DNA from: an uncultured Clostridia bacterium
GTDB lineage: Bacteria > Bacillota > Clostridia > UBA1381 > UMGS1253
Length of the DNA stretch: 64,000 bases
Assembly (NCBI GenBank): GCA_934457145.1
Contig: CAKSHP010000005.1
Span: forward strand, 17,121-81,120
Reading direction: 5' to 3'
Positions 2,842-39,556 of this stretch are shown piece after piece (position 1 is the stretch's first letter; each line of letters opens with the position of its first letter). Below the pieces are notes generated by a model. It was not told the DNA's origin, did no database searches, and worked only from the letters and a program-made list of their open reading frames with translations. The position numbers were made by a program, and so were the translations under genes.

Positions 2842-3054
2842 CTATTTTACCGGATCGTAGCCGCCCTTTGAAAAGGGGTTACAGCGCAAAATGCGCCAAA
2901 CCGACATAAGTCCGCCCTTTAAGACGCCGTGTTTTTCAATGGCTTCGATGGAATACTGCGAGCAAGTCGGGTAAAATTTGCAAGTTGATTTTCCCTTAAG
3001 CGGCGAAATGAATTTTTGATACATGCGAATAAAAAATATAAAGAGTTTTTTCAT
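2842..3054 (-). CDS. yidD: membrane protein insertion efficiency factor YidD
   Basis: ORF 2842..3120. The inner start gives [21 protein letters not shown]...[27 protein letters not shown], the typical YidD signature. Confidence 0.85.
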
Positions 3055-3138
3055 AACGTTAACCTCTGTGAATTTTTTATTACAAAAGAAGCTGCAAATA
3101 TTAAAAATGCAATTTCTCATTATCTAAAAAAGTGCATC

Positions 3139-8815: not shown

Positions 8816-8972
8816 GTTTATTTCCTCTTTTTTATATTTTAATGTGATTTTAGCATAAAAACGAAATTTTTGCAAGCTTTGTGCCAAACGCAAATATTAT
8901 GCTTGTTTTTTTTTAGAAAACATAGTATAATGTGTATAACAAACTAAAAAACATAAAGATGAGGGATATAAA

Positions 8973-9713: not shown

Positions 9714-9751
9714 AATCTTGCTTCAAACGAAAAAGGAAAGGAATAATTAAC

Positions 9752-10423: not shown

Positions 10424-10433
10424 AATAATGCAT

Positions 10434-10480
10434 AAAAACGGCGGGAGAAAAGCAATTTTGTTTTTCTCCCGCCGTTTTTT
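10434..10480. terminator. bidirectional terminator between tmk and the corA-like gene
   Basis: CGGCGGGAGAAAA (10439-10451) pairs with TTTTCTCCCGCCG (10462-10474). It is flanked by an A-run and a T-run. Confidence 0.75.
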
Positions 10481-10500
10481 ATTTTAACTAAAGCCATTTT

Positions 10501-11346
10501 TTAAAGCCACTTTTTGCGTTTGAAAAACCATATCAGAAATATTACAAGCGCAATACTTACAAATATTATGCAGCCGTAGCCGTAGTGCCATTTTAGCTCC
10601 GGCATGTTTGTAAAATTCATACCGTACCACCCGGCTATAAGCGACAGCGGCAAAAATATAACGGTTACAACAGTGAAAAGCTGCATTAAATCGTTTTGAC
10701 GTATTGCAAGCTGCGACTGATACGCTTCGCGCAGCTGACTGATTATTTCCTGAAGGTTTACAACAGTGTTTAAATATCGTTCGCTGCGGCTTTTCAGCGC
10801 CGAAAAACGCCTTACATATGCAGGAGAGACAATGCGGTTTTCGTTTTCACAAAGCTCGTCAAAAATCGACGAAAGCTGACTGTAATAGCGTTTTAGCCTT
10901 AAAAGTTCCTTTCTGCGGTTTATCATCTGTTTTGTGTCTAAATTATTTGCGTTTGATAATATAAAATCTTCCTCATCGGAAAGAGTTTGCTCAAAGTTTT
11001 GCAAAAAATTTATATCACCTTTTAAAATGCGGGCAAAAAACAAATATAAAATGTGCGCCGGAGAGGAAAGCGGCTGCAAATTCAGCTCGTTTAACGTTTT
11101 TGTCACTTTACTTTCCATGAAATCGTTTTCGCAAAAGAAAAACAAACCGATTTTATCAAAATATATCATAAGCTTTGCAGTGTCTCGCTTGTCGCTTTTT
11201 ACATCGTAAAAATCAAATGCAAGAAGGTCAAAATCATCAAAACATTCAAAGCCCTCTGTCTGACATTCCTGTATGTAGTCAAATGCTTTTTTGTCCATAA
11301 GCGGCGCAGCGTCGCTTATATTTTCAAATTTAAAAATTTTATACAT
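10501..11346 (-). CDS. CorA-like divalent cation channel
   Basis: The C-terminus has two TM helices and the GMN motif (WYGMNF). I set the start to the inner ATG (MYKIFKF); the ORF track extends it to 11397. Confidence 0.75.
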   Translation of the reverse strand: MYKIFKFENISDAAPLMDKKAFDYIQECQTEGFECFDDFDLLAFDFYDVKSDKRDTAKLMIYFDKIGLFFFCENDFMESKVTKTLNELNLQPLSSPAHILYLFFARILKGDINFLQNFEQTLSDEEDFILSNANNLDTKQMINRRKELLRLKRYYSQLSSIFDELCENENRIVSPAYVRRFSALKSRSERYLNTVVNLQEIISQLREAYQSQLAIRQNDLMQLFTVVTVIFLPLSLIAGWYGMNFTNMPELKWHYGYGCIIFVSIALVIFLIWFFKRKKWL

Positions 11347-12538
11347 AATCTTTTCCTCCAGTGTCGGAATTTTGAATAAACAAATCTTCACAGCCAAGCT
11401 TTAAAAGCGCGCATGCCAGCGAAAAGAGATAACAAAAATGCATGTCGGCGTTGTCGGTTTCTATATCAAAATCGTTTTTGGCTTTTTGGATGCGGTAAAG
11501 CACGGTGTTTGAATGAGTAAACATTTTTTGCGACGTTTTTTTAAGCGAACGGCTGCATATAAAATAGTTATACAAAGTCAGGCAAAATTCGCTTTTATTT
11601 TTAAGATCGTATTTAAAAAGACTGTTTATTTTGCTGTCTATCGGGAAATCTTTTTGCTTGTAAAGCTTTGCAAGCAAAAGATAATCTCTTTCAAACGCAA
11701 CGAAGCAGTCCCTTTTTAAAAAAGAGTCTGTGTTAAAAATATCGGATATTAACTTGTAGTGAATATACATATCAAAAAGCGCGCCGAGACGTTTTGAAAC
11801 AATAATTTTTAACTTAAACTCGTTTGCAAGCAAATTAAGATTATATATGTCACTGTCCTCATGAATAAATAAAATAATTTGGTTTCTGTATAAAAACGGG
11901 TGCGCGCCGTGAAAATACAGATTTATTTTATCTTTCACAAATCCGGAGGAGCTGTCGTGCTCAATACTTTTGCAAAAGTCAATAACAGCAAAACGGCTCG
12001 GCGAAAAATGCGAAAGGTATGTTCCGCCGACCTGAATATCAAAAATATTTTTGTCGGAAAACTTGCCACCGAGTAAGTCTTCCAAAATCTCCTGGGATGT
12101 GCTGTTGGCACTGTCACAGCAGTGAAGCTCAAGATAAAGCTGTTTTGCCAAAAGCGATTCGCAAAACAAAAAATCTTCGGATTTCGGGATTGCATCTTCG
12201 GCGCTTTTAAAAATATATAATATATATCCCAAAAGAACGCCGCCGCTTGAAAGGCTTGCAACATATAAGTTGTTTTCACCCATGCAAATCCAAAAATGAT
12301 TTTTGTTTTCGTTTAATTTTTCGGCAATCTGCGTACATGCCGAAAACGAAAGCTCGCTGTGGCGCACGGCGGTTTTATAGGCAGCGTCTGCATAGTTTAA
12401 ATACGAATATGAGCAAACAATGTGAAAGGCACAGTCTGTTATAATAATCGGACACAAAAACTCCTCGCCGACGCTCTTTGCAAGCTCGTTTAGTGAGTTG
12501 TCGCAAAAAAACGACGACAGAATCTTATCTTTGTTCAT
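11339..12538 (-). CDS. PucR/CdaR-type transcriptional regulator
   Basis: The C-terminal HTH reads LKKTSQKMFTHSNTVLYRIQKAKNDF. The gene overlaps the downstream CorA-like gene, which suggests an operon. Confidence 0.6.
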   Translation of the reverse strand: MNKDKILSSFFCDNSLNELAKSVGEEFLCPIIITDCAFHIVCSYSYLNYADAAYKTAVRHSELSFSACTQIAEKLNENKNHFWICMGENNLYVASLSSGGVLLGYILYIFKSAEDAIPKSEDFLFCESLLAKQLYLELHCCDSANSTSQEILEDLLGGKFSDKNIFDIQVGGTYLSHFSPSRFAVIDFCKSIEHDSSSGFVKDKINLYFHGAHPFLYRNQIILFIHEDSDIYNLNLLANEFKLKIIVSKRLGALFDMYIHYKLISDIFNTDSFLKRDCFVAFERDYLLLAKLYKQKDFPIDSKINSLFKYDLKNKSEFCLTLYNYFICSRSLKKTSQKMFTHSNTVLYRIQKAKNDFDIETDNADMHFCYLFSLACALLKLGCEDLFIQNSDTGGKDYV

Positions 12539-15788: not shown

Positions 15789-16874
15789 GTGCGGAGGGAA
15801 AACATGAGCAAAATAATAAGTGATTTATACGGGTGCGACTTTGTTATAGATTTGGGCGAAAAAAGAAAAAAGATAAAGCTTTTGCAGCTTACCGATATGC
15901 AGGTTATTGACTCATCGCAAAGAAGAACGCCGGAGCGGCTGCGACCGGACGAGATAAAAGCGTGGGCGCCGGAAAATTTTGATGCGCTTTGCGGCAATCA
16001 TATCCGTTCGCTTGTATCGCAAACGAAGCCTGATTTAATATTTATCACGGGAGATATTGTGTATGGTTCGTTTGATGATAAGGGCAGCACTTTAAAGTGG
16101 TTTTGCAAGTTTATGGACTCGCTTGAAATTCCGTGGGCGCCGGTGTTCGGCAATCACGACAACGAATCAAAAATGGGGGTTGCATGGCAGTGTGAGCAGT
16201 TTGAAAAAAGCAAATACTGCGTGTTTAAAAGAGGAGAAGTGTCCGGCAACGGCAACTACACGGTCGGAATTTTATCAGAGGGAAAGCTTGTGCGCGCACT
16301 GCACATGACAGACTCAAACGGCTGCGCAGCAGGCGATGATAAAGACGTTATAAAGGCTGAAATAATATGTCATGACCAAATAGAGCTTATAAAGAAAAAA
16401 ACGCAGCTTATACAAAGCAAGTGCAATGCGAAAATCCCGGCATTTCTTGCTTTTCATATACCTACAAAGGAATTTGAGGAAGCGGAAAAGCATAACGGAT
16501 ACATAACAGACAGCCGAAAGTTTTACACAATCGGCGTGGATGTCGGGCAAAAAAACGGCGATTTCGGGTTTAAACTTGAAGATTATGAGAGCATAAAAAC
16601 TCCCGCTGATTTTATCGATACTTTAAAAGAGTGCAATATTGACGGGGTTTTTACAGGTCATTGCCATAATATATGCACGTGTATTGAATACGAAAATATT
16701 CGCTGGGTTTTCGGGCTTAAAACCGGTCAGTACGATTATCACATACCGGGGCAAATCGGGGCAACGCTTGTCACGCTTGACGGCAAAGACTTTGATGTTT
16801 TGCATGTGCCGTCGCTTGTGGCATATGGACCGTTTCCCGGAAAAGCAAAAATGTTTAATAATTTCTTTACATAG
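15789..16874 (+). CDS. calcineurin-like metallophosphoesterase
   Basis: Contains QLTDMQ, ITGDIVYG, VFGNHDNE and GHCHN motifs. The start may be the ATG at 15804. Confidence 0.75.
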   Translation: MRRENMSKIISDLYGCDFVIDLGEKRKKIKLLQLTDMQVIDSSQRRTPERLRPDEIKAWAPENFDALCGNHIRSLVSQTKPDLIFITGDIVYGSFDDKGSTLKWFCKFMDSLEIPWAPVFGNHDNESKMGVAWQCEQFEKSKYCVFKRGEVSGNGNYTVGILSEGKLVRALHMTDSNGCAAGDDKDVIKAEIICHDQIELIKKKTQLIQSKCNAKIPAFLAFHIPTKEFEEAEKHNGYITDSRKFYTIGVDVGQKNGDFGFKLEDYESIKTPADFIDTLKECNIDGVFTGHCHNICTCIEYENIRWVFGLKTGQYDYHIPGQIGATLVTLDGKDFDVLHVPSLVAYGPFPGKAKMFNNFFT

Positions 16875-16877
16875 AAT

Positions 16878-16915
16878 AAAAAAATACGGCGGTGCAGCAG
16901 CATTGCCGTATTTTT
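16878..16915 (+). terminator. terminator after the metallophosphoesterase gene
   Basis: ATACGGC pairs with GCCGTAT, followed by a T-run. Confidence 0.65.
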
Positions 16916-16941
16916 ACATGGTTTTCCAATAATAAAAATGA

Positions 16942-16970
16942 TTGACAATCGAGAAAATATATGTTATACT
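16942..16970 (+). promoter_or_regulatory. promoter TTGACA-17-(TGt)TATACT upstream of the rhs gene
   Basis: TTGACA is at 16942-16947 and an extended -10 (TGTTATACT) ends at 16970. This leaves a leader of about 180 nt. Confidence 0.55.
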
Positions 16971-17151
16971 GAAGATACAAAATATCAAAAGGAGGCGATT
17001 TTTGAAATAAAATAAATAAAAACAGCAAAAACTCAGTAATTTTTCCATGGCACACGATTGTAAGGTTGAGGGGGTAGAAGAAATTTGCCGCAAAAGCATT
17101 ATACCTAAAAGCGTGCAGATGCTTCTTGAAGCCGAAAGGCGAAAGGATGGT

Positions 17152-20100
17152 ATGTTTATGAAAAGGTTATTAAGTGTTTTACTAAGTATTATGTTAGTGT
17201 TTTCCGCATTTGGCGGTGCGTTTGCAAATGACGCTGCCGCTTTAGAAAGTGCGGAATTTTTTAATTTTCAAGAAGAAAATGAAAATTATGCGCCGGCAGA
17301 CGAAATTCTGCCAAATGATGATTTGGACGGCAGCAGTGAAACAGAAAGAGAGATTTTAACTTCACAAAGCGTGAAACCGGTGGCAGAAGATGATGAGGGC
17401 ATTAATCTGCCGGGAAACGAAAAAGGCTATGGTGCGTCTAATCTGCCAGAGCTGCCCAATCTGCCGACTGAGCAGGAAACAGACAGCGGCGGTTTAAACA
17501 ACGAGGGGCAAAACCGCCCGAACAGCGGCAGCTATCTTACATATGAACAAATGCTTGAAAAAGTGCGTTCAAATGCACGAAGCGAAGAGGAATACGAAAA
17601 AATTATAAATGCGCAATACATTGAGCCTGTGTATGACGATTTTGACGAAGAACAGCTTGAAAGAGCAAGAGAAAAAATTTTAAACATTAAAAACAGAGAG
17701 GTTGAAACGGAAAACGCGCTTAATTATGAAAGCGGCGCGGCTGCGATTGCAGAATTAAACGGCAGACCGGATTTGAAGATGCCGTCACTGTCGCCGAGAA
17801 AAGCGGCAAAATTTCCGAAAAGCCTTGAAGAAATTGATTTTTCACTGCCGGGCATAACTCCGGGCGCCGAAACACAGTCAAGCGGAACACAGGAGGAAAT
17901 TGACATTGCGCCCGAACAGTACGAAAGCGTATACAATGTGTTTAACAACGGCAATGAGGCTGTTGACGTACAGAGCGGAAATTTAAGCTATATTTATCCT
18001 GTTGTTTCGCTTCCGGGAAAAGACGGATTTGATTTAAATATTAATTTGGTTTATCATTCCGAAGATTCGCTGATGCGCGACTATAATGTTTCGCGAAATT
18101 GGAGTGTGGATTTGCCACAGGTGAGCTATGTTGGCAATTATCAAACAATAAGACTGCGTGACGGGAGAGTTATAAAGGAAAGTAACGGTGTTTTCTATAA
18201 TAAATACACAGATGATGTTACAATTACATGGTCAACAGGTGCTGAAAAAACTGCAACTGTTGAGTATAAAGACGGATCAAAGGACTATTTTGACAAAGAC
18301 GGAAGCATAGAACGCTCGGAAGATCCGTACGGAAATCAGATAACATATTCATATACGCGTCCAAACAGTATTGATAAATTTATTTATTCAATAACAGATA
18401 CATACGGAAGAAAAATTGAATTTAACTTTGAGACACAGAGCAAATTAAAAATTTATTGCGGCGATACGGTTTATGCTGTAGCAGATGTACATGCTGGCGG
18501 TCCTATTTCAAAAATAGGTACAAAACGAAATGCTGCGGGAGAGATAGAATGTGCAACCGAATTTACATATCAAAACGATTATCATGACATAGGTGTGGAT
18601 GGTGGCGCTCGCGAACTTTTAACAAAAATTAAATATTATACCGGCGGCGTTACAAAGTTTGAGTATGAAGCTTATAACAAAAACACATATATTGAACGTT
18701 GGTCATATGGAAGAGATTTATTTTCGGGGGAATATGGTTACACAAGCATAGGATATATGTGGGATGATGTGAACGAAAACAGAGTTATAAGCCGTGCGGA
18801 CTATCTTGAAGACAGCGAAACGGCAGAGCCGTTAAACACTGTGAATTATTACTATATCACAGATGATGATATGGAGTATGACGAAATTTCCGGCGATTAC
18901 ACAGACGCAAATTATACCTACTACACAATATGCGAAACTGCCGACAGCAGAAAAGAAGGTTCGCTTCATCAAAATATTTATGCATTTAACAACCGCCGTC
19001 AAAAAATAAAAGAAGAACTTACCGACGGTGAGTTTGGCAGATTTATATCAGCTGAAAAATTTAACAGCTTAAATGTGAATTTAAGCTATCAGGCAGATGA
19101 GTATTTTTCATGCAGTGACGTGCATTACCGTTACTATCCGCAAACTCATACATATAACGGCGAAACATACGGCAGAGGCGTTTATAATTATCAGGCTGCC
19201 GGACACATTTTAGAATATGAATCGATATATAATGAAAATGATATGCGAAGTATTGAGGCGGCAACCGCTCCGTATGATGAAGTGTATAACAGAGTGGATG
19301 AGATGCTGTATTTAAAATACACAACCAAAGCCGGCAAAGTGTTTTACGAAAAAATAAATATGCAGGAGGAACTAAAGAGGCAAAGGGAATTTACCGAATA
19401 CACATATCACCCGACCTACCGCCTCTTAACGCACACGTTGAAAAAGCATGAGCTTGACGATAATGGCGATCCCTTTGAAAGCAGCACAACATATAACTCA
19501 AAAGGCGATATACTTTCTCACACGGATTTTTATAAAAATACTGTAACATACACATATCCGGAGCAAAACAATAAAGGTATACCGCTGAGCGAAACATATT
19601 CGTATAACGGCGTTTCGGATACAACAACCGTTACAAATACCCTCTTATACACAGAGGGCGGAGCAGCATATATATCAAGTACGCAGACTGCATATAATGA
19701 CGGATATGTGAACAAACAGGATTATACATATGTTTTTAACACGCATATAGATCCGATTATACAAACTGCGTATTACGAGGGAACATCTCAGCGCTTGGGA
19801 TTTTACAAAAAAACAAGCGGATTTACCACCGTGATTGGAGACGAGCTGTGCGTAACAACGAGGGTACATTCGTATTATACCGACACAGAATATATACAAA
19901 CATCAAAAATATATGACTTAAAAACAATGCTTTTAAAAAGCGAAACAGACGGCGAAAATTTAACAACTTCATATATTTATGATGATGTTTTTTGGAATAA
20001 GGTTAAACAAATCACCGAGCCGAGCGGAAAAACAACAAAGTATTTTTATAATATCGGTGAGGAAAATTCGTTTGTGACGCTTTTGTGCGATAAATATTAC

Positions 20101-22992
20101 ACAAAAGACGTTATGGACGCATTGGGCAGAAGAACCGCCGCATATGACGGCGAGTACACCGCAGAGGAAGGCTTTAAAACTCCGCATTTAATTAATACAT
20201 ATACCTACAGCGACAATTTAAACAATATCACATGTGTTACAAATGCGCTTTCGCAAAGCACATATTATTACTATGACGATTTATATAACCGTGCAACGTC
20301 AACATTGCAGTATGACGGAAATCAAAATATTATAAACCGCATAGAATATGACGACAAAAGCCGCGAAAAAACGGTGTATGATCCCCAAAATTCAAAAATG
20401 ACATATAAATATGATTGCCGGGGAAATCTTATCAAAAAATACACAACGCTTTCAAACAATGATATTTGGCAGGAAATCAGCGCATATGACGTGTATAATA
20501 ACTTAACGTCGCAGACGGACGCTAACGGCAATACCTCAAACTACACATATAATTCAAGAAATTTGCTCATTTCCAAAACAGACGCATTAAATAACACAAC
20601 ATTGTACAGCTATACTCACGGCGACAAGCTAAGCTGCGTAAATTATCCTAACGGAGCGTATAATTTTTATCATTACGACGGTTTTGAAAACGTGAGAGAA
20701 TTGGAAAGAAGCGCAGACCGCGGAGATCTTTATACTTATGATAAAGCCGGAAATCTTAAAAGTGATGATAAATATACGTATGTGTATATGTATGAAGTTG
20801 AGGGCGAACCGGATTCGTATCTTTTAAAATATAAAATTGATTACGGATATCCGTTACATATCGGCGTGCAGTATGAGTACGACGATTTCGGAAACGTTAC
20901 AAAAGAATATTATATCCAGGCGTACACAGTAAATTATGAAATGCAAACGCCGACTGCAATCTACGGTAAAAAGCATATAGAATACACCTACACTTATAAC
21001 GGACTTTTGGCAAGCGAAACGGTTGTTCCGGACTATCCGGAGGAATTAAGAATGGAAAACGCATACACATATGATGCCGCCGGCAATGTTTTATCCGATA
21101 TAAATGGCACATATACTTATGATAATCTCGGACGTTTATCAACGCACACATATAACGGAAATACAGACAGTTATGTCTATAATAAAGATGGTACGCTTGC
21201 AATAATAATGCGTAATGGAAACAATGAATACTTTACCTATGGTGATTTAAAACGTCTTTACGCAAAAGGGTATGAAAAAGCTTCAAATGAGTATGTGTAC
21301 GAAATACTGTACTATGATAAAGTCGGTAATGTAAAAAGCCAAACAAGCGGAATTGAAATTTATAATTATGAAACATGGGTTCTGGAAGAAGCACATGATG
21401 AAACCGTGAATTATACATATGATGCGCTAAACAGGCTGACCGTGGAGGCTGCACCTTCAAAAACAACATATTACAGTTATGATAATATGGGGAATATAAC
21501 TCAGCAAGTGTATGCATACCCTGCAAACACATCTTTTGTTTCAGGACACCGTTCAAACAGTTATACCTATAATTCGAACGATATAAGCAGTCATTGCAAA
21601 ATATATACATACAACAGCTATAATGAGTTAAACTCAATAATTGAAAGTGTTTATTACTGGGCTGATGAAGAGGCGGGAACATATTACGAGGACAGATACA
21701 ATTATCTATTTGAGTATGACGTAATAGGGAGAATGACAAAAAAGATTTTGGACGGCTATGAACAGGAATTCAAATATAACACTGTCGGTCAGCTTATAGA
21801 GTATACAGATGAATCCGATAAAAAAACGTATTATTCGTATTACACAAACGGACTTCGGGAAAATAAAAATAACATGGTTTCATTTGATTACCATAACAGC
21901 GAATATACATATAAGGATTTTTACTATGATCAAAATGGCAGAATAATTTATGAATATCATCCCGAAATTTCTTCAACAAGCGACAATGTGTGGTATAGAT
22001 GGAACGCTTTTAATCCTGTGTATTCAAGCGCGGCTCCATATGATAATATTGTTTCAAATCACAGAGGCGATATTGTAAGCAATTTTGAACACTTTATCAA
22101 TGGTTACGGTGCATACGGGGTAAAAGAGCGCGAAACAAAAGAAAACAGTATGTATTTCGGGTTCTGCGGAGAATATACGGACGAGGAAAGCGGTCTTGTA
22201 TATCTCAGAAACCGATATTACGATCCCGAAATCGGCAGATTTATAACCGAAGATCCGGCAAAGGATGGCGACAATTGGTATGCATATTGTGCAGGCAACC
22301 CGGTAAGTTATATTGATCCGAGCGGGCTTGCACCGACGGTTATGGAAGCGGCGGAAATGGCGGAACATATTTATAATCATAATAAATATGACGATAAAAA
22401 TGAAAGAATAGTATCTGGTTGGAGATTGGTAGATGTATATAATGGGCGAGAAGGTATGAAGATGGGAATTTATATAAAAAACATTGACGATTGGAGAAAT
22501 CCTTCAGAATATACAATTGCATTTAAAGGAACAACATGGTATAACCTTAATGATTGGAAAAATGATGCAGAACAATTATTGTCGCCAAAATCTAAAGATA
22601 TGTGGGATGCCATAAATTACAGTAAATGCTTTGTTGCTTTTCATTCCCAAGAAATAACTTTTGTTGGTCATTCGAAAGGTGGAGCTGAAGCGGCATCGGC
22701 GGCTGTTGCAACAAATAAAAATGCTATGATATTTAATCCTGCAACATCAAATCTTAGAGATTATGGGCTTAATATATCTGGTTATACTTCAAGTATGACA
22801 GCATACATTGTTAAAGGAGAAATTGTGAATCATCTAGAGGGGTGGTTTAGTAAACCTATTGACAAAGTAGTGTATCTTCCACAACAACATGGAGGTCATT
22901 GGTATGAGTTTTGGCAGACAAATTTATATCAGAGAATACAAAATCATTCAATTAGAGCTGTTAAAGGTGCGTTAAAGGAGGCGGGTTATTGA
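17152..22992 (+). CDS. secreted Rhs/YD-repeat polymorphic toxin with a C-terminal alpha/beta-hydrolase module
   Basis: The ORF track starts at 17047. I prefer ATG 17152 or 17158 after AAAGGATGG, which gives the signal peptide MFMKRLLSVLLSIMLVFSAFGGAFA. There are many YD repeats (YTYDAAGNV, YTYDNLGRL, YTYDALNRL, YSYDNMGNI, FEYDVIGRM). The Rhs core end reads YLRNRYYDPEIGRFITEDP...GNPVSYIDPSGL. Confidence 0.9.
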   Translation: MFMKRLLSVLLSIMLVFSAFGGAFANDAAALESAEFFNFQEENENYAPADEILPNDDLDGSSETEREILTSQSVKPVAEDDEGINLPGNEKGYGASNLPELPNLPTEQETDSGGLNNEGQNRPNSGSYLTYEQMLEKVRSNARSEEEYEKIINAQYIEPVYDDFDEEQLERAREKILNIKNREVETENALNYESGAAAIAELNGRPDLKMPSLSPRKAAKFPKSLEEIDFSLPGITPGAETQSSGTQEEIDIAPEQYESVYNVFNNGNEAVDVQSGNLSYIYPVVSLPGKDGFDLNINLVYHSEDSLMRDYNVSRNWSVDLPQVSYVGNYQTIRLRDGRVIKESNGVFYNKYTDDVTITWSTGAEKTATVEYKDGSKDYFDKDGSIERSEDPYGNQITYSYTRPNSIDKFIYSITDTYGRKIEFNFETQSKLKIYCGDTVYAVADVHAGGPISKIGTKRNAAGEIECATEFTYQNDYHDIGVDGGARELLTKIKYYTGGVTKFEYEAYNKNTYIERWSYGRDLFSGEYGYTSIGYMWDDVNENRVISRADYLEDSETAEPLNTVNYYYITDDDMEYDEISGDYTDANYTYYTICETADSRKEGSLHQNIYAFNNRRQKIKEELTDGEFGRFISAEKFNSLNVNLSYQADEYFSCSDVHYRYYPQTHTYNGETYGRGVYNYQAAGHILEYESIYNENDMRSIEAATAPYDEVYNRVDEMLYLKYTTKAGKVFYEKINMQEELKRQREFTEYTYHPTYRLLTHTLKKHELDDNGDPFESSTTYNSKGDILSHTDFYKNTVTYTYPEQNNKGIPLSETYSYNGVSDTTTVTNTLLYTEGGAAYISSTQTAYNDGYVNKQDYTYVFNTHIDPIIQTAYYEGTSQRLGFYKKTSGFTTVIGDELCVTTRVHSYYTDTEYIQTSKIYDLKTMLLKSETDGENLTTSYIYDDVFWNKVKQITEPSGKTTKYFYNIGEENSFVTLLCDKYYTKDVMDALGRRTAAYDGEYTAEEGFKTPHLINTYTYSDNLNNITCVTNALSQSTYYYYDDLYNRATSTLQYDGNQNIINRIEYDDKSREKTVYDPQNSKMTYKYDCRGNLIKKYTTLSNNDIWQEISAYDVYNNLTSQTDANGNTSNYTYNSRNLLISKTDALNNTTLYSYTHGDKLSCVNYPNGAYNFYHYDGFENVRELERSADRGDLYTYDKAGNLKSDDKYTYVYMYEVEGEPDSYLLKYKIDYGYPLHIGVQYEYDDFGNVTKEYYIQAYTVNYEMQTPTAIYGKKHIEYTYTYNGLLASETVVPDYPEELRMENAYTYDAAGNVLSDINGTYTYDNLGRLSTHTYNGNTDSYVYNKDGTLAIIMRNGNNEYFTYGDLKRLYAKGYEKASNEYVYEILYYDKVGNVKSQTSGIEIYNYETWVLEEAHDETVNYTYDALNRLTVEAAPSKTTYYSYDNMGNITQQVYAYPANTSFVSGHRSNSYTYNSNDISSHCKIYTYNSYNELNSIIESVYYWADEEAGTYYEDRYNYLFEYDVIGRMTKKILDGYEQEFKYNTVGQLIEYTDESDKKTYYSYYTNGLRENKNNMVSFDYHNSEYTYKDFYYDQNGRIIYEYHPEISSTSDNVWYRWNAFNPVYSSAAPYDNIVSNHRGDIVSNFEHFINGYGAYGVKERETKENSMYFGFCGEYTDEESGLVYLRNRYYDPEIGRFITEDPAKDGDNWYAYCAGNPVSYIDPSGLAPTVMEAAEMAEHIYNHNKYDDKNERIVSGWRLVDVYNGREGMKMGIYIKNIDDWRNPSEYTIAFKGTTWYNLNDWKNDAEQLLSPKSKDMWDAINYSKCFVAFHSQEITFVGHSKGGAEAASAAVATNKNAMIFNPATSNLRDYGLNISGYTSSMTAYIVKGEIVNHLEGWFSKPIDKVVYLPQQHGGHWYEFWQTNLYQRIQNHSIRAVKGALKEAGY
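22330..22989 (+). other. C-terminal toxin module (220 aa after DPSGL): lipase-class alpha/beta-hydrolase-like
   Basis: IAFKGT..W..DW..D is followed by the nucleophile elbow FVGHSKGGAEAA (GxSxG). The segment looks visibly more AT-rich than the Rhs core just upstream; this was judged by eye, not computed. Confidence 0.65.
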
Positions 22993-23528
22993 TGAAAAGA
23001 CCAAAAATGATGATTGTAATTGCAATACTGATTGGTATTTTTATTTTAATTGGTCGTATAATTTGGATATTGTCCTTCGGATTTCTTCCAAATCCGCCGA
23101 AACCTCAAATAACGTATGGTGAATTTCCGTTTGAATTGATATATGAAATAAACGGAGAAACAAAAACAGTAAATGATGTTTTTGTGTGCGAGTATGGCGG
23201 AGTGGCTGTAGATGCAGCAAATGGGAAATTTCGCTGGTGGAAATCTTATTTGAAAAGCGGAAACACGCGCATTACATTATTAAAAAATGATGAGACGGAA
23301 ATTTTTTATACCCCCGATATAAACCAGCATGCGGCGCCGGTATATATGGGTGATACGGAAATTTACCACAGTATTAACGAAGTGTTCCCGAACGCTCTTT
23401 ATACAAGTGATTTTGAAAACAAACAGGTAAATTCGTATATTATATCAGCAGATGAAATGTGGGAGAAATATAAGCTTAAACTTATAAGCTGGAAAATTGA
23501 ACCTCCGATTAAAAACACTTTTAAATAA
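22992..23528 (+). CDS. putative cognate immunity protein (N-terminal TM, PPNPPKP/YEINGE family)
   Basis: Its ATG overlaps the rhs stop (TGATG), with AAGGAGG 11 nt upstream. It has one TM helix, then LPNPPKPQITYGEFPFELIYEINGE. A paralogue lies at 24876. Confidence 0.6.
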   Translation: MKRPKMMIVIAILIGIFILIGRIIWILSFGFLPNPPKPQITYGEFPFELIYEINGETKTVNDVFVCEYGGVAVDAANGKFRWWKSYLKSGNTRITLLKNDETEIFYTPDINQHAAPVYMGDTEIYHSINEVFPNALYTSDFENKQVNSYIISADEMWEKYKLKLISWKIEPPIKNTFK

Positions 23529-23556
23529 CCGATAGTTTGCACAAAAGGATATGCAC

Positions 23557-23589
23557 GGGGCGGCAGGCAAAAACGCCGCCCCGGCAGAG
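23557..23589 (+). repeat. GC-rich hairpin element, copy a (GGGGCGGC-loop-GCCGCCCC-GGCAGAG)
   Basis: Perfect 8-bp GC stem. The element recurs at 24755, 26761 and 27411. Confidence 0.7.
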
Positions 23590-23604
23590 CAAGGGGAGAA
23601 AAAG

Positions 23605-24072
23605 ATGAAAAAAATTATATTAATGACACTTGCAGTAATTTTGCTTGCTGCGGCTGCCGGCGGATATTATATTTACAGAATAACTATTGATACAGAATAT
23701 GCGGTTAAATTTTCAGAAGTTTTTGACACTTATGATATAAATGAGATTGACAAATATTTTGATGAAGACACTTTGTTTATATATGGGCAGAGGCAAAAAA
23801 CATATAAAGAATTAAGAGACAATATCAAAACTGCCTGTGATAAAAAATGTTATAAATTCGGTTCGTACGGACACGGCAATGACAGATTTGAAAACAATCG
23901 TCAAACTGTCACACTTATGTTGCATGCCACAATTTATAATGAGGATATTACAATGGAAACCCATATGGTATTAAAACGAACGGGGCCGTTTTCATTTAAA
24001 ATAGAGTCGGTTGATTGCAGCGAAAAGCTGTTGGGAGATTTGTTTTTCGGTGAAGAGGGAGGAAGATTGTGA
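23605..24072 (+). CDS. membrane-anchored hypothetical protein (cassette 1, gene 2)
   Basis: The inner ATG after GGGGAG gives MKKIILMTLAVILLAAAAGGYYIY. Its stop overlaps the next gene's start (GTGA). Confidence 0.6.
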   Translation: MKKIILMTLAVILLAAAAGGYYIYRITIDTEYAVKFSEVFDTYDINEIDKYFDEDTLFIYGQRQKTYKELRDNIKTACDKKCYKFGSYGHGNDRFENNRQTVTLMLHATIYNEDITMETHMVLKRTGPFSFKIESVDCSEKLLGDLFFGEEGGRL

Positions 24073-24518
24073 AAAAAATAATTACATTTATAATTTTTAT
24101 ATCAGTAATATTGAACACACAGGTGTTTGCAAGCGATAATGTTTTAAAAAATCAGGTGGTAGACAAAATTGCCCCGTATGCGCAAAAGGATTCGGAAGAA
24201 AAAATACCGAGAAAGGATTGCGTTATTTCAATTGTAAAAGCTATCGGCGCGAATGAAGATTTAAATGAACAACGAAGACGGGTGGCTTACGAGTCTCCGC
24301 CTTTCGGTAGCGAGTATACAATATTTCAAGAGGATTTTGGATATTTGATAGCGGCTTATTATGATGATATATTGTGCGGAGAGCCGTATTATTACAATTC
24401 TGAGCAAATGGGAGTTTTGGTTACGCCGTTTCGCGCAGTGAAAGCAAAGGAATGTCTGGCGTTTATGCTAAGATGTTTAAAACCTATGGAAAGTATAGAA
24501 TGGAATAACACTTTTTAA
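24069..24518 (+). CDS. secreted hypothetical protein, copy 1 (cassette 1, gene 3), ends at an in-frame TAA
   Basis: Signal peptide MKKIITFIIFISVILNTQVFA. Nearly identical to 26077..26526. Confidence 0.65.
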   Translation: MKKIITFIIFISVILNTQVFASDNVLKNQVVDKIAPYAQKDSEEKIPRKDCVISIVKAIGANEDLNEQRRRVAYESPPFGSEYTIFQEDFGYLIAAYYDDILCGEPYYYNSEQMGVLVTPFRAVKAKECLAFMLRCLKPMESIEWNNTF

Positions 24519-24743
24519 GACAGCATAGATATCGGACTGATAAATGCAGAAGAAGCAAAAGCATTCGAAAATCAGAAATATTTAATGGCAAAGGATTTTA
24601 GAGTATTGCTTAGCCGTATGCTTGATATGAAACGGTATTTGTATTATACGGATGAAGCAAAAAAATCTGTTTGGAGAAATTATATTGAAACAGATGCAGC
24701 GGGCAGCATGACATATTTGGAACAGTATCTGAAAAATAATTAA
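24519..24743 (+). other. in-frame, coding-like extension of 74 codons after the TAA of the preceding ORF
   Basis: The same frame continues as DSIDIGLINAEEAKAFENQKYLMAKDFRVLLSRMLDMKRYLYYTDEAKK...YLEQYLKNN, stop TAA at 24741. Confidence 0.5.
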
Positions 24744-24754
24744 AATATGCCTGC

Positions 24755-24790
24755 GGGGCGGCGGTTTCGCTTACCGCCGTCCAGGCAGAG
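24755..24790 (+). repeat. GC-rich hairpin element, copy b (degenerate)
   Basis: GGGGCGGCGG-tttcgctta-CCGCCGTCC-aGGCAGAG. Confidence 0.6.
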
Positions 24791-24875
24791 GGAAAAGCAG
24801 ATTTGAAAAAACAAGGGCGTGACTGTGAAACGCAAAGATTGATATCCGACTAAATCGGAAGTGAGGGGTGAGGAC

Positions 24876-25487
24876 ATGAAAAAAGGAAAGTCTTTAAAAA
24901 TTGCTGCAGTTTTAATATTTTCGGCGTTTGTAATCTGGCTTGGGTGCATATATGTATATGTCGGAACATATATTTTTCCGATTGCGCCTCATTGGGTTAC
25001 TCAGCTTCCGCCGAATCCTCCGAAACCGAAAATCCGTCACGGTGAGTTTAACTTTAATTTGCAATATGAAATAAACGGCGAAAACAGAAATTTAAAAGAT
25101 ACGCTTGTTTGCGATTTTGACGGGTTTGAGGTAACGCAGGTCGGAGGACCGAAAAACCGTGTCTGGCGATCATATTATGAAAACAAACAGCAAAACGAGC
25201 TTTTCACTTTCAGAAATGAACCGTCCGATATTGTGGAAATTGTGCTTGAAAATACAGATAATTATAAAATTATTCTCGGTATGCCACAGGCGGCAGAGCT
25301 TATGGGAGATATAGAGAGAAAAACGGAAGTTGAAAACGAACCGTGCGTAAAAGTGTATGACGTAAACGAAAGGTATTACGTTTACCCGGACAGGTGCGAT
25401 GAAATTTTGTCGGAATGCGGTTTTGAGGTTCTTGAATGGAAATGCGATAAACCTATAGAAAATGAGTTTAAGAAAACGTGGTGGTAG
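24876..25487 (+). CDS. paralogue of the putative immunity protein (cassette 2, gene 1)
   Basis: The inner ATG gives MKKGKSLKIAAVLIFSAFVIWLG (TM helix), then LPPNPPKPKIRHGEFNFNLQYEINGE...W.SY. The C-terminus reads EWKCDKPIENEFK, compared with SWKIEPPIKNTFK in the first copy. Confidence 0.6.
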   Translation: MKKGKSLKIAAVLIFSAFVIWLGCIYVYVGTYIFPIAPHWVTQLPPNPPKPKIRHGEFNFNLQYEINGENRNLKDTLVCDFDGFEVTQVGGPKNRVWRSYYENKQQNELFTFRNEPSDIVEIVLENTDNYKIILGMPQAAELMGDIERKTEVENEPCVKVYDVNERYYVYPDRCDEILSECGFEVLEWKCDKPIENEFKKTWW

Positions 25488-25536
25488 ATTGGCGAAAAAA
25501 TTTTAAAAAGAACGCTCAAACAGATTATGAACGGGG

Positions 25537-26064
25537 GTGATTATTATAAAAATATATAAGTATATAATTTTATTTGTAACGATAATAATTATCGATTATA
25601 TAAAATTTACTTTGCCTTTCGGCAGAGCAAACGCATTTATTATGGCGCTGCTTTTTGGGGCGGAGGCGCTTTTTACGGCGGCAATGGTTGTTTACGGAAT
25701 TTTTATGGCTTTAAGACATAAAAAAATATTTTTTATAATATCCTCTGTGTGTCTGCTTTTAATTTTGTATGTATTTCCGTACACAAAGTTTTATGCCCGG
25801 GCAGACATATTTATTCATCAAAACATCAGGCAGCAGGCAATAGATTTTTTAAAAAGCGATGAGGCAAAAAGCTGTCAAACCTCGGAGAACACGTTTTTAC
25901 TTCCGATGCGTTTCAGGTTTGCCTCACACAGCGCAAACGCGATAGTGAAAAAAGATAAAGAAGAAGTTATATTTTATATTCACTGCGGATTTTTTAAAAG
26001 AAGCTTAGCGGTATATTCTTATACGGATAAAAAATTGCTGAGAAGTGAAACATTGCAGTGGTAA
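25537..26064 (+). CDS. polytopic membrane hypothetical protein (cassette 2, gene 2)
   Basis: Several hydrophobic helices. The start codon is uncertain (GTG with no clear SD). Confidence 0.45.
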   Translation: MIIIKIYKYIILFVTIIIIDYIKFTLPFGRANAFIMALLFGAEALFTAAMVVYGIFMALRHKKIFFIISSVCLLLILYVFPYTKFYARADIFIHQNIRQQAIDFLKSDEAKSCQTSENTFLLPMRFRFASHSANAIVKKDKEEVIFYIHCGFFKRSLAVYSYTDKKLLRSETLQW

Positions 26065-26076
26065 TGGGAGGCAGAA

Positions 26077-26526
26077 ATGAAAAAAATAATTACATTTATA
26101 ATTTTTATATCAGTAATATTAAACACACAGGTGTTTGCAAGCGATAATGTTTTAAAAAGTCAGGTGATAGACGAAATTGCCCCGTATACTCAAAAGGATT
26201 CGGAAGAAAAAATACCGAGAAAGGATTGCGTTATTTCAATTGTAAAAGCTATCGGCGCGAATGAAGATTTAAATGAACAACGAAGACGGGTGGCTTACGA
26301 GTCTCCGCCTTTCGGTAGCGAGTATACAATATTTCAAGAGGATTTTGGATATTTGATAGCGGCTTATTATGATGATATATTGTGCGGAGAGCCGTATTAT
26401 TACAATTCTGAGCAAATGGGAGTTTTGGTTACGCCGTTTCGCGCAGTGAAAGCAAAGGAATGTCTGGCGTTTATGCTAAGATGTTTAAAACCTATGGAAA
26501 GTATAGAATGGAATAACACTTTTTAA
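26077..26526 (+). CDS. secreted hypothetical protein, copy 2 (cassette 2, gene 3), same in-frame TAA
   Basis: Differs from copy 1 by four amino acids, all near the N-terminus. GGGAGG lies upstream. Confidence 0.65.
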   Translation: MKKIITFIIFISVILNTQVFASDNVLKSQVIDEIAPYTQKDSEEKIPRKDCVISIVKAIGANEDLNEQRRRVAYESPPFGSEYTIFQEDFGYLIAAYYDDILCGEPYYYNSEQMGVLVTPFRAVKAKECLAFMLRCLKPMESIEWNNTF

Positions 26527-26751
26527 GACAGCATAGATATCGGACTGATAAATGCAGAAGAAGCAAAAGCATTCGAAAATCAGAAATATTTAATGGCAAA
26601 GGATTTTAGAGTATTGCTTAGCCGTATGCTTGATATGAAACGGTATTTGTATTATACGGATGAAACAGAAAGTTCGGGGTGGAGAACTCATATTGAAACA
26701 GATGTATCGGGCAGCATGACATATTTGGAACAGTATCTGAAAAATAATTAA
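26527..26751 (+). other. in-frame coding-like extension, copy 2
   Basis: Same continuation as copy 1, with a diverged patch (TESSGWRTH vs AKKSVWRNY). Stop TAA at 26749. Confidence 0.5.
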
Positions 26752-26760
26752 AATATGCTG

Positions 26761-26795
26761 CCGGGGCGACAGGCAAAACCGCCGCCCCGGCAGAG
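26761..26795 (+). repeat. GC-rich hairpin element, copy c
   Basis: CCGGGGCG pairs with CGCCCCGG across a 14-nt loop, followed by CAGAG. Confidence 0.7.
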
Positions 26796-26880
26796 GGAAA
26801 AGCAGATTTGAAAAAACAAGGGCGTGACCGTGAAACGCAAAGATTGATATCCGACTAAATCGGAATTGAGAGGCGAGGAT

Positions 26881-27405
26881 GTGAAAAAGAATAAAGTATT
26901 TGGACTGATTGTTTTGGGTATGATTTTAGCCGGACTATTGGTGTGTTTGAACAGGGATATTTTACTTGATCGTTTTTGGAGTAAAATCGAAAGTCAATTA
27001 GACTATGAGCGTTCTTTGAAAGTGGGAGATGACTTTAACAAAATTAGCTGGGGCGATTTGAGTTTTCAAATCAATCACCATAAGTCAGGTAATAATTTGG
27101 AATATGTCAGCGTTGTTGATAAAGAAAGCTATATTTTGCTGAAAAACATATCTTCATATAAAATCGTGGAAGAAAAATTATATGTTAAGTCAAAGGATGG
27201 ATATGCAGTGATTGATAAAAATAATTTATGCAGAGTGTGTGTAACAGTGCCGGATGATGAATTTGTAAATGGCTACACAGTTGATGACGCCGGAAATGAA
27301 ATACCGATAAGCAGATATATAGAAAATGAAAATGTGATATATTTAAAAAGCTATAGCGAATTTACAGATGAGGAAAGAAAGGTTTTTGAAAAAATGGAAA
27401 AGTAA
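26881..27405 (+). CDS. membrane-anchored hypothetical protein (last gene of the island)
   Basis: A GTG start at the position equivalent to ATG 24876 gives VKKNKVFGLIVLGMILAGLLV (TM helix). Confidence 0.55.
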   Translation: MKKNKVFGLIVLGMILAGLLVCLNRDILLDRFWSKIESQLDYERSLKVGDDFNKISWGDLSFQINHHKSGNNLEYVSVVDKESYILLKNISSYKIVEEKLYVKSKDGYAVIDKNNLCRVCVTVPDDEFVNGYTVDDAGNEIPISRYIENENVIYLKSYSEFTDEERKVFEKMEK

Positions 27406-27410
27406 ACTTG

Positions 27411-27444
27411 CGGGGCGACAGGCAAAACCGCCGCCCCGGCAGAG
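27411..27444 (+). repeat. GC-rich hairpin element, copy d
   Basis: Almost identical to copy c. Confidence 0.7.
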
Positions 27445-27450
27445 AAAAGG

Positions 27451-27496
27451 AAAGTCCGGCTGGCTGTTTGGCTTTGCCGGACTTTTCTTCTTTTTT
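27451..27496. terminator. bidirectional terminator closing the island
   Basis: AAAGTCCGGC pairs with GCCGGACTTT, followed by a T-rich run. Confidence 0.7.
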
Positions 27497-27662
27497 AATG
27501 AGGCATCATATCTTTTACCGCTTTTTTCATATCGCTTACCATATATCCGGCTTTTCTTGCCGCGCGCCTTCTTTGGCGCGGAGTGATAGGATCAAGCGCA
27601 AGGGCGACTGCCGCCCCGGCTATTGCTCCTGCAAATGCACCTTTGATAAATCCGTAGCTCAT
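27495..27662 (-). CDS. small glycine-zipper/YtxH-like protein
   Basis: The inner ATG after AAAGGAG gives MSYGFIKGAFAGAIAGAAVALALDP. Confidence 0.5.
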   Translation of the reverse strand: MSYGFIKGAFAGAIAGAAVALALDPITPRQRRRAARKAGYMVSDMKKAVKDMMPH

Positions 27663-27873
27663 AAGTTTATCTCCTTTCAAAAATCCGTGTTAAAAAATGC
27701 GGGATGAGTTTTTTTGCTGTTTTTATCGGGCGATATTATTATGTGTTTTAAATTAAATAAATAAACTTTATTTTAATGCATATTTTCAGATAAAAAAGGA
27801 TTTGAAATTTTAAAAAAATTATGGTAAAATATTATTGCGGTTTAAAAATATTTTTCGGAGATGATACATTAAT

Positions 27874-28593
27874 ATGGATAAAACGAAATATACTACAGAT
27901 GATCTTCTTTTGATAATGAAAAAATTAAGAGGCGAAAACGGTTGTCCGTGGGATAGGGTTCAGACGCATGAGTCTATTAAAGAGTGTATGGTTGAGGAAA
28001 GCTATGAAGTTATAGACGCTCTTGACAAAAAAGACGATAAGATGATGGCAAACGAGCTTGGCGATTTATTATTACAGATAGTGTTTCACTCGCAGATTGC
28101 TTCGGAGCGCGGAGCGTTTGACTTTAGCGATGTGACAGACGAAATATGCAAAAAGCTAATCAGCCGTCACAGCCATGTTTTCGGCAATGACAGCGCCGAA
28201 GATGACAAACAGGTTATTGATTTATGGGATAAAAATAAAAAAGCCGAAAAAGGGCTTTTGACGGTTACCGATTCTTTAAAGGACGTACCGGCTTCGTTTC
28301 CGTCTCTTATGCGGGCGCAAAAGGTGATAAAAAGGGCGGCGAAAAGCGACATGCAGTTTAAACCGGACTACAGCGAAAACGACATTTTAGACTCTGTTGC
28401 CGACGCTGTTTCGGATATCAGAAAAAACATTTTAAATAATGAAAACCCCGAGGAAAATTTTAAAAAGCTTCTGATGCTGACGGCGGCGTTTGCCTCAAAA
28501 AAACAGCTTTGCGCCGAAATTTTATTAAAAAATGCCGTTGACGAATTTATTGAAAAGTTTGAAGTTTTAGAGCAAGTTGCACAACAAAAATGA
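27874..28593 (+). CDS. mazG: MazG-family nucleoside triphosphate pyrophosphohydrolase
   Basis: Contains CPWD, EESYEVIDA and ELGDLLLQIVFH. It occupies the yabN position of the Bacillus yabN-yabR cluster. Confidence 0.85.
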   Translation: MDKTKYTTDDLLLIMKKLRGENGCPWDRVQTHESIKECMVEESYEVIDALDKKDDKMMANELGDLLLQIVFHSQIASERGAFDFSDVTDEICKKLISRHSHVFGNDSAEDDKQVIDLWDKNKKAEKGLLTVTDSLKDVPASFPSLMRAQKVIKRAAKSDMQFKPDYSENDILDSVADAVSDIRKNILNNENPEENFKKLLMLTAAFASKKQLCAEILLKNAVDEFIEKFEVLEQVAQQK

Positions 28594-39428: not shown

Positions 39429-39556
39429 ATAAGCAGTATTTTATTAGGCTGTAATATGCTGTTGGAACTATCGGCGGTTTTTTGCGGTCTGATACATAAG
39501 GCGTGCATAAAAAAATAAGCTAATGTGTGCGCTTATATTTTGAAGGGGGTAAACAA

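Follow-up and report, generated by a model that had tools for sequence, protein, structure and literature searches.

In this work, we ask what kind of system is formed by a gene for a very large Rhs/YD-repeat protein and the seven small genes behind it, which together occupy positions 16,942 to 27,496 of a 64,000-nucleotide stretch of DNA from an uncultured Clostridia bacterium (contig CAKSHP010000005.1; this whole stretch is called the window below). The original prediction described a Sec-signal Rhs polymorphic toxin followed by two tandem three-gene cassettes, in which one invariant secreted member might act as an accessory factor of a delivery or immunity system. All open reading frames (ORFs) which it had placed in the block were recovered at the same positions on the + strand, and we refer to the seven downstream genes, all in this orientation and separated by spacers of -4 to ~130 nucleotides (nt), as g1 to g7. 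In our judgement the locus very likely combines a WapA-like Rhs lipase toxin, exported by Sec, with a signal-anchored protein as its cognate immunity partner (g1) and with a heterogeneous polyimmunity array. The six genes behind g1 would be orphan immunity genes gathered from other toxin modules; sequence comparison supports an immunity role of g1, g4, g3 and g6, and weakly that of g7.

The Rhs protein, its predicted lipase tip and the g1 family

The Rhs gene (17152..22992, + strand) encodes a polymorphic toxin of 1946 amino acids (aa) whose N-terminus, MFMKRLLSVLLSIMLVFSAFGGAFA (17152..17226, +), is by inspection a Sec signal peptide, with a K/R n-region, a 15-residue hydrophobic core and an A-x-A site, as judged by eye; cleavage is predicted after AFA and the mature part begins with ND. 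An alternative in-frame ATG at 17047 would extend the protein to 1981 aa and bury the signal peptide. Further on, the RHS_repeat family of Pfam is matched across three stretches (1.6e-10), YD_repeat_2x of NCBIfam is matched too, and no CWB2, LysM or other Pfam/NCBIfam domain was found in residues 26-580 at E<=0.1. The repeats lead to the Rhs-associated core TIGR03696 (Rhs_assc_core of NCBIfam; residues 1652-1726, 22105..22329, +, E=1.1e-22), which terminates in YIDPSGL, with the DPSGL junction at 22315-22329. By tblastn the core is similar to the Rhs bodies of seven related loci (L019, L022, L025, L026, L030, L042 and L043), and the same core end is joined to different tips in four others (L012, L013, L023 and L035).

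The 220 residues past the junction (22330..22992, +) form a C-terminal tip which is predicted to be an Mbeg1-like (DUF2974) alpha/beta-hydrolase of lipase/phospholipase type with a GHSKGG nucleophile elbow. It matches Pfam Mbeg1-like (PF11187) with 25.3 bits against a cutoff of 21.1, and it matches a "T6SS lipase effector" of known structure (PDB 7ubz, E=3.3e-5), GHSKGG being aligned with GHSLGG. The same protein in a near-identical strain (L069) was pre-annotated as "Phospholipase-like" (PF26363), and of 16 tips at least 90% share the motifs VGHSKxGxE, FNxA and NH. Homologues of the tip were sought in a phage collection and gave no match. The same type of N-terminal Sec signal is carried by every full-length toxin with this tip (L019, L022, L030, L042, L043 and L046). 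Read from these features, the block encodes a predicted Sec-exported Rhs toxin with a lipase tip, as the original prediction had it for the signal peptide and the repeats. The Rhs protein would leave the cell via its signal peptide, and the tip would presumably hit the membrane of neighbouring cells from outside, its lipase activity being assigned from the domain match.

Dependence on a type VI secretion system (T6SS) or on a type VII secretion system (T7SS) with LXG proteins was considered and rejected, given the content of the window and the Sec signals on all full-length homologues. A Pfam scan of 40 of the other larger ORFs of the window, all of 120 aa or more, so that a small WXG100-type protein may have been passed over, found no T6SS, T7SS or LXG component and no integrase or recombinase, in agreement with the earlier claim that secretion-system genes are lacking here.

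Directly behind the toxin lies g1 (22992-23528, +), the ATG of which overlaps the TGA of the Rhs gene. Like all seven downstream proteins, its product has no match among the curated families of Pfam and NCBIfam; the g1 family comprises 29 clusters without a Pfam domain. A profile from the closer subset of the g1 alignment, scanned against 185,579 species genomes, gave 56 loci, which come from metagenome-assembled genomes of Clostridia, Paenibacillus, Cohnella, Anaerotignum, C. beijerinckii and others. Among 61 family members with enough upstream sequence, a tip lies directly upstream of about 18 in full and of about six more as a fragment (a script counted 19 full tips, among them one at L046 5261 which is a C-terminal fragment only). 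In most tip-g1 pairs the start codon of the g1-family gene overlaps the stop codon of the tip or lies close to it (gap of -10 to +36 nt in 16 of 19, maximum +185); in L020 (Paenibacillus alvei) the pair is separated only by an inserted transposase gene, and in L001 a 40-aa tip remnant is fused ahead of the g1-family member. Tip identity and partner identity co-vary across 16 complete pairs (r=0.80, Mantel p=2e-4), a figure to which shared host phylogeny adds. Co-variation of the cassette slots with the tip, which had been proposed as a check, is found for g1 (slot 1) but not for the other slots, which are absent from the g1 loci. The search was also run in the opposite direction: the tip alone, against a plasmid collection, had a single match, an orphan Rhs tip in Monoglobus pectinilyticus (L078), and the stop of this tip overlaps the start of a g1-family gene (39% identity, E=1e-32).

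The AlphaFold2 (AF2) model of g1 (pLDDT 83.6) has a transmembrane helix at residues 4-30 followed by a beta-rich domain. Since the N-terminus is positive-inside, the beta-rich domain is expected to face outwards, on the side from which an exported lipase would reach the membrane of its producer. No significant PDB relative was found with Foldseek (best E=0.14); a match to the S. aureus hypothetical protein 4egd is insignificant (E=0.9, TM-score 0.13), and assignment of a fold was dropped, the LolA/LolB-like half-barrels reaching a TM-score of 0.17. Neither g1 nor g4 matched the Pfam families of TilA (DUF576) or TilM (DUF1433) at E<=0.1.

These data make g1 the candidate cognate immunity protein of the lipase tip; the association is observed and neutralisation is what we infer from it. 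The gene would be translationally coupled to the toxin gene and its product would block the lipase at the producer's own membrane. Because every full-length toxin with this tip carries a Sec signal, the Sec-Rhs-lipase gene plus g1 appears, by sequence, to be a recurrent module in Bacillota. A paralogue of g1 is found further down the array as g4 (24876-25487, +; 29% identity, E=3e-23). It has no tip upstream, it is 96-97% conserved in the Rhs-less strains L009-L011, and it is presumed to be an orphan immunity gene against a diverged lipase tip or another allele.

The interrupted genes g3 and g6

Slot 3 of both proposed cassettes had been described as a secreted 149-aa protein. In both copies the 149-aa ORF (24069-24518 in g3, 26077-26526 in g6) and the 52-aa ORF which follows it are one 224-codon frame (24069..24743 and 26077..26751, +) with a single in-frame TAA at codon 150 (24516-24518 and 26524-26526). 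The 52-aa ORFs were tried as genes of their own and rejected, being the in-frame 3' parts of g3 and g6. Intact homologues have 222-226 aa, and P0030, P0031 and P0033 carry Q at the position of the stop, that is, a CAA has become a TAA nonsense codon. Stop-codon reassignment and programmed readthrough were rejected as well: TAA also ends other genes here, CAA stands in the intact alleles, and of the two copies in a near-identical strain only one is interrupted.

Over 20 kb, the locus of this strain (L069) shares 99.95% identity with the window; it carries the TAA in copy 1 only, copy 2 being intact with 224 aa. Its copies differ at 10 sites, within 24308-24575; at 10 of 10, the TAA included, the g6 of the window has the g3 allele, and the flanking markers are of g6 type. 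From this pattern we deduce a gene-conversion tract of at least 268 bp (window 26316-26583 in g6, converted from 24308-24575 in g3), which made the copies near-identical and inactivated the second one. Both genes lie in a direct repeat of ~810 bp (24070-24883 versus 26078-26888, 93-98% identity). The near-identity of g3 and g6, on the evidence of these alleles, is recent history and not functional constraint. Of the slots as originally described, slot 1 is indeed diverged (29%), slot 2 unrelated and slot 3 near-identical, but the 149-aa protein is part of a 224-codon gene. The idea of an invariant secreted accessory factor did not survive: slot 3 is truncated here, its relatives elsewhere lie behind M91-like tips, and its identity comes from duplication and gene conversion.

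The g3 family comprises 209 representative clusters at E<=1e-3 in an exhaustive profile search and has no Pfam annotation. A scan of metagenomes with this family yielded seven loci, mostly short. In L012, an orphan Rhs tip which matches Peptidase_M91 (39.7 bits, cutoff 25, E 8.5e-10) ends in a stop codon at which a 226-aa family member begins; a second tip with an HExxH motif is followed there by a 374-aa protein with the same signature motifs (by eye, unscored). Family members also stand behind M91-like HExxH tips in L071 and L073/L077, in L075 behind an Rhs protein of 1710 aa which is complete, with signal peptide, DPxGL and HExxH, and downstream of a tip remnant in L072; L074 and L076 have them in toxin-free arrays. 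The pairing with M91-like tips is seen in five of the eight other loci. In the 2012 catalogue of polymorphic toxins, HopH1/NleD-like (M91) RHS toxins are listed without a known immunity protein (PMC3482391). The gene contexts point to g3 and g6 as orphan immunity genes of a family paired with M91-like metallopeptidase Rhs tips.

The AF2 model of an intact family member (pLDDT 93) shows a three-repeat helical fold, and its top three PDB matches in Foldseek, the sole convincing ones, are S-layer homology (SLH) trimers, SpaA-SLH 6cwc and Sap-SLH 3pyw and 6bt4 (probability 0.95-1.0, TM-score 0.51-0.63, E=0.02-0.12). The host indeed has an SLH S-layer protein, as stated earlier; it was found by the Pfam scan at 39527-42631, and the family profile aligns with its SLH region over 151 columns (hhalign 87.7%). 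The predicted fold may be like that of the SLH trimers, with sequences below the Pfam SLH threshold: g3, P0030 and P0033 have no Pfam SLH match, and one of 83 relatives has a weak one (5e-4). A TRxD/E motif is kept in repeat 1 of the family, and repeats 2 and 3 are without the TRAE arginine. Unlike SLH domains, which anchor surface proteins, the family consists of stand-alone secreted proteins genetically paired with a metallopeptidase toxin. Without the third repeat, which lies past the nonsense codon, the 149-aa products probably do not function, and g3 and g6 of this genome, truncated as they are, are probably pseudogenes, judged from their reading frames.

A few members of the family carry fusions to additional domains, among them Cu_amine_oxidN1 and RCC1 repeats, and some members reach 350-550 aa; such proteins may be polyvalent variants or variants associated with the wall.

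Strain variants, the remaining genes and the hairpins

The locus lies between a metallophosphoesterase gene and mazG, and at this Metallophos-MazG site other strains differ in content. L009-L011 keep codons 1-49 only of the Rhs gene, followed by an array in the order 117aa, g2', 152, 158, 247, g4, g5, g6 (intact) and g7, and in L070 Rhs codons 1-48 are joined straight to g2, g3 (intact) and g7. The array genes are kept at 86-99% identity in these toxin-less strains. Orphan-immunity or "cheater" evolution would be expected to leave such arrays behind once the toxin is lost. In relatives such as L013, L035, L041, L046, L012 and L078, orphan tips with DPxGL persist, and behind each there is an immunity gene. 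Within the 64-kb window no remnant of an Rhs core or tip was found elsewhere (tblastn, all matches at E>0.05), and the earlier description of the array as immunity-only, with no orphan tip downstream, holds. Since relatives hold orphan tips between their immunity genes, we regard the window, from this comparison of sequences, as the tip-less end state of the classical Rhs orphan arrangement.

Some of these loci deserve a description of their own. In L001-L004, from another gut Clostridia lineage, positions 6900-11950 hold a tip remnant, a g1-like gene, an orphan SH3_3 Rhs tip, a 166-aa gene and a second g1-like gene; the array adjoins a tyrosine recombinase (Phage_integrase), like recombinase-associated immunity islands. 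On the 518-kb replicon of Monoglobus pectinilyticus (L078, 7137-12433) there are an Ntox44 toxin, a hypothetical gene, a frameshifted lipase tip, a g1-like gene, an Rhs tip and hypothetical genes, and this orphan array neighbours a serine recombinase and conjugation genes, a context which indicates that such modules also move on mobile elements. In L012 (104-1274) a 136-aa multi-transmembrane protein follows another Rhs tip ("toxin A", without a Pfam match), and the 117-aa first gene of the L009 array (2805-3158) resembles it (by inspection, unscored); these two proteins are candidates for a further toxin-immunity family.

There remain the array genes g2, g5 and g7. The product of g2 (23605-24072, +) is a signal-anchored protein of 155 aa, that of g5 (25537-26064, +, start codon uncertain) a multi-transmembrane protein of 175 aa, and that of g7 (26881-27405, +) a signal-anchored protein of 174 aa, with a GTG start where the ORF list gives TTG at 26866. 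The sequences of g2 and g5 are unrelated. Homologues of g2 are strain variants (86-100% identity) and one gene in L074 (39% identity); the array there is toxin-free, and a g3-family gene lies two genes downstream of the g2 homologue. For g5 a single cluster (98% identity) exists among 5.8 billion proteins, so it is lineage-restricted; it is present in L009 and L069. A relative of g7 in L023 (Paenibacillus sediminis) is a 138-aa lipoprotein gene (11984-12400) directly behind an orphan Rhs tip (a weak first-pass match, E=1.5e-4), and another, of 184 aa, lies in L014 in a toxin-free array behind a g1 homologue. Iterated searches with hidden Markov models over the 4720 ORFs of the fetched loci brought no more homologues of g2, g5 or g7 than the strain variants, L074, L014 and L023. 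Both g2 and g7 are presumed to be orphan immunity genes.

In L023 itself (10756-12400), the tip upstream of the g7-like lipoprotein is a 348-aa ORF without a Pfam match; further on, past recombinase-like and transposase-like ORFs, a truncated lipase tip is followed by a g1-like gene.

The rival which survives best holds that g1, perhaps with g4, is alone related to immunity, and that g2, g5, g7 and the remnants g3 and g6 are hitch-hikers in a recombination hotspot with no role in defence. It draws on the missing toxin association of g2 and g5, on the lack of g5 homologues outside the species, on the truncation of g3 and g6 and on the absence of Pfam/NCBIfam matches. However, the g3 family and, weakly, the g7 family are found directly behind Rhs tips elsewhere, all the genes are on one strand, tightly spaced and targeted to the envelope, and their identity of 86-99% is kept in strains without the toxin, as in polyimmunity loci (PMC3482391). 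Each of the seven products is either secreted or anchored in the membrane, in keeping with toxins whose site of action is the cell envelope. We regard the hitch-hikers as unlikely and prefer the polyimmunity array.

The array is punctuated by four copies of a GC-rich hairpin of ~36 nt (CTGCCGGGGCG...CGCCCCGGCAG), which occur in the locus only within the 64-kb window, all on the + strand. Copy 1 ends the Rhs-g1 module (23552..23589; -25 kcal/mol, z=-4.9), copy 2 is a variant with inverted loop (24750..24788), copy 3 has -27.5 kcal/mol (26758..26793) and copy 4 (27409..27442), taken with the terminator-like hairpin which follows it, -45.8 kcal/mol. They fold at -25 to -27 kcal/mol, lie 7-28 nt past a stop codon, have both loop orientations and no U-tract on the + strand, and they partition the array into Rhs-g1, g2-g3, g4-g5-g6 and g7. 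Hairpin 2 is followed by a conserved leader of ~90 nt, which is repeated so that it precedes g4 and g7 (24773-24883 versus 26778-26888, 93% identity). A scan of 16.5-28 kb with Rfam gave nothing above noise, and hence the hairpins are not a known RNA family. They recur in the strain variants (L009 at 3186, 5493, 7495 and 8144; L070 at 1227; L069 too) and are missing from loci further removed that have genes of these families.

Breakpoints between strains lie near these hairpins. Where window and L009 differ in gene content, homology is back 20-28 nt upstream of a hairpin. Both Rhs-less variants break within the Rhs gene at 17295-17298, where the window reads CCGGCAGA (17291-17298), which matches the hairpin's 3' arm (window 23582-23591) over 8 nt; on its right side the L070 deletion stops at the 3' end of hairpin 1. 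These sequence junctions suggest that toxin and g1 were deleted by a microhomology-mediated or hairpin-associated event. An integron-like or other hairpin-mediated system, with the palindromes as recombination sites bounding mobile immunity cassettes, would account for these breakpoints and for the hairpin after the last stop of each module in the window, L069, L009 and L070. Against it speak the lack of an integrase or recombinase in the window, the lack of hairpins in distant loci with the same families, and left breakpoints which are not at hairpins (e.g. within the 3' end of g2); moreover, the two Rhs-less variants may derive from one ancestral event, and leftover 3'-end stem-loops, homologous recombination via hairpin and leader, and microhomology deletion suffice as explanations. 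We hold such a system to be improbable.

The three-gene cassette as a functional unit, with a conserved 149-aa secreted protein as accessory factor of delivery or immunity, is highly improbable: its gene order does repeat once, its slot 3 copies are 98% identical and g2-like and g3-like genes lie near each other in the unrelated contig L074, but slot 3 is a truncated 224-codon gene whose identity stems from a conversion tract absent from the 99.95%-identical strain, homologues of g2, g3 and g5 are missing from all 56 g1-family loci (0/56, with g7 twice) and from the Monoglobus locus, g3 relatives stand behind M91-like tips with no relative of g1 or g2, g2, g3 and g7 occur once, as one set, in L070, the place of g3 is taken by other genes in L009, and the hairpins group the genes differently from the proposed cassettes.

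The edges of the block are as originally described, from promoter to terminator. A promoter-like site upstream of the Rhs gene (16942..16970, +; TTGACA-17-TATACT with TG) is a consensus match only and the top-scoring sigma-70-like match within 16500-28000 (11/12). It is preceded by a terminator-like hairpin (16880-16915) which closes the upstream metallophosphoesterase gene, and the right edge of the block is a terminator-like hairpin with a T-run (27455-27495, hairpin 27466-27482, +). The upstream neighbours of the Rhs gene are MutS2 and the metallophosphoesterase. The 40 scanned other ORFs of the window are housekeeping genes (FeoB, MutS2, YidC, Jag, TagA, CorA, PFL, GatA/B, AspRS and others) and the one SLH protein; for the genes past the locus to ~34.5 kb, Pfam annotations are available from L069. 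A 61-aa ORF (MKGDKLMSYGFIKGAFAGAIAGAAVALALDP..., 27495-27680, - strand) is convergent with the array's end and conserved in L009, L069 and L070, where it was called as a 55-aa gene; its product looks like a small membrane or stress protein.

Known systems and the weight of the evidence

The original prediction considered this organisation not to be a textbook one. A signal peptide of the Sec/type II secretion system (T2SS) route together with RHS repeats is the default and most prevalent trafficking mode of polymorphic toxins (PMC3482391), Sec export of Gram-positive WapA-type Rhs toxins has been established experimentally (PMC12704120), and polyimmunity loci which are immunity-only and uninterrupted have been described (PMC3482391), so the arrangement is not an unusual one. 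With WapA/WapI of Bacillus subtilis and WapA of Streptococcus suis the locus has in common the Sec signal, the YD/Rhs shell, the DPxGL core, the polymorphic tip, an immunity gene (here a candidate) directly downstream and no T6SS or T7SS (PMC12704120). It differs from WapA in having no detected CWB2/LysM wall-binding domain, in a tip which is a predicted envelope-acting lipase and not a tRNase, and in a candidate immunity protein which is membrane-anchored instead of cytoplasmic. Unlike S. suis WapA, it has no upstream SecF-like and SrtB genes; MutS2 and the metallophosphoesterase stand there instead.

Polyimmunity loci are tandem, same-strand, free of toxin cassettes, strain-variable and sometimes beside recombinases (Zhang et al. 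2012, PMC3482391), the criterion being at least four tandem genes of the same orientation with short spacers (PMC3482391). The array is likewise tandem, same-strand and tight, has unrelated small genes and no tip, and varies in content between strains; some arrays related to the locus adjoin recombinases (L001, L078). Where polyimmunity loci stand alone, this array adjoins a complete toxin-immunity pair on its downstream side; its products are without exception secreted or membrane-anchored, no named Imm family includes any of them, the window has no recombinase, and an immunity function is supported for four of the seven genes. The acquired interbacterial defence gene clusters of Bacteroidales are related to polyimmunity loci. 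The array would protect the cell against toxins of rival strains and would turn over fast by recombination.

In classical enterobacterial Rhs loci with orphan tip-immunity modules, modules are likewise displaced to positions behind the main rhs gene (PMC12704120), whereas the window has lost every orphan tip with the immunity genes remaining, and export is predicted to be by Sec and not by T6SS. The lipases TslA and TslM of the S. aureus T7SS are paired with a lipoprotein (TilA) or signal-anchored (TilM, DUF1433) immunity protein, the latter with a globular domain outside the cell, in strain-variable multi-copy arrays (PMC13560087). These pairs and the T6SS Tle/Tli pairs (PDB 7ubz) resemble the locus in a GxSxG alpha/beta-hydrolase lipase with action on membranes from outside and in immunity at the outer face, both of which are predicted for the locus, yet they are delivered with VgrG/T6SS or reverse-LXG/T7SS, compared with Rhs and Sec here. 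No similarity of sequence or fold to Tli, DUF576 or DUF1433 is detectable in g1, which is therefore placed in a separate immunity family; by analogy it may be functionally like TilA and TilM, unrelated as it is in sequence.

Several points weigh against the reading as a WapA-like lipase toxin with a polyimmunity array. Toxicity, export and neutralisation are all derived from sequence. Neither WapA's wall-binding domain nor the SecF-like/SrtB neighbours known from S. suis are present here, and at 215 kDa the Rhs protein would have to pass the wall and the S-layer to reach its target. The 56 loci were picked through g1, which biases them towards a tip followed by g1, and the unbiased reciprocal test has n=1; the Mantel correlation contains the phylogenetic component already mentioned. 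Among the array genes, g2 and g5 have no link to a toxin, g5 being a lineage-restricted orphan, the toxin link of g7 is one weak homologue, and the pairing of g3 with M91 comes from eight loci, mostly on short contigs; the truncated 149-aa products of g3 and g6 might keep some function. Finally, 37 of the 61 g1-family genes have no detectable tip upstream. The original prediction would have taken downstream genes without a toxin neighbour as evidence against itself; as these 37 sit in arrays of orphan-immunity type, they refute the cassette idea and leave the immunity idea standing.

The novelty of the locus is modest: it brings two candidate immunity families without prior annotation and no new delivery system. 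Roles can be proposed for both of them. The g1 family, signal-anchored and found in Clostridia and Paenibacillaceae, would be the partner of Mbeg1-like Rhs tips, and the SLH-like secreted g3 family that of the M91/HopH1-like tips for which the 2012 catalogue lists no immunity protein. The SLH-like family may hint at S-layer-directed metallopeptidase toxins. Taken further, Sec-delivered M91-like Rhs toxins would target the S-layer or SLH-anchored surface proteins of Gram-positive rivals, the SLH-mimicking immunity protein would act in the wall as a decoy or substrate-mimic inhibitor, and the hairpins would be recombination points at which modules are shuffled and toxins excised; we give this combined idea a slender chance. 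If it is true, SLH-anchored S-layer and surface proteins are a class of toxin targets not described so far. For the organism itself, the locus illustrates evolution in a gut anaerobe by tip replacement, by loss of the toxin with immunity kept ("cheater" genotypes) and by gene conversion between immunity copies.

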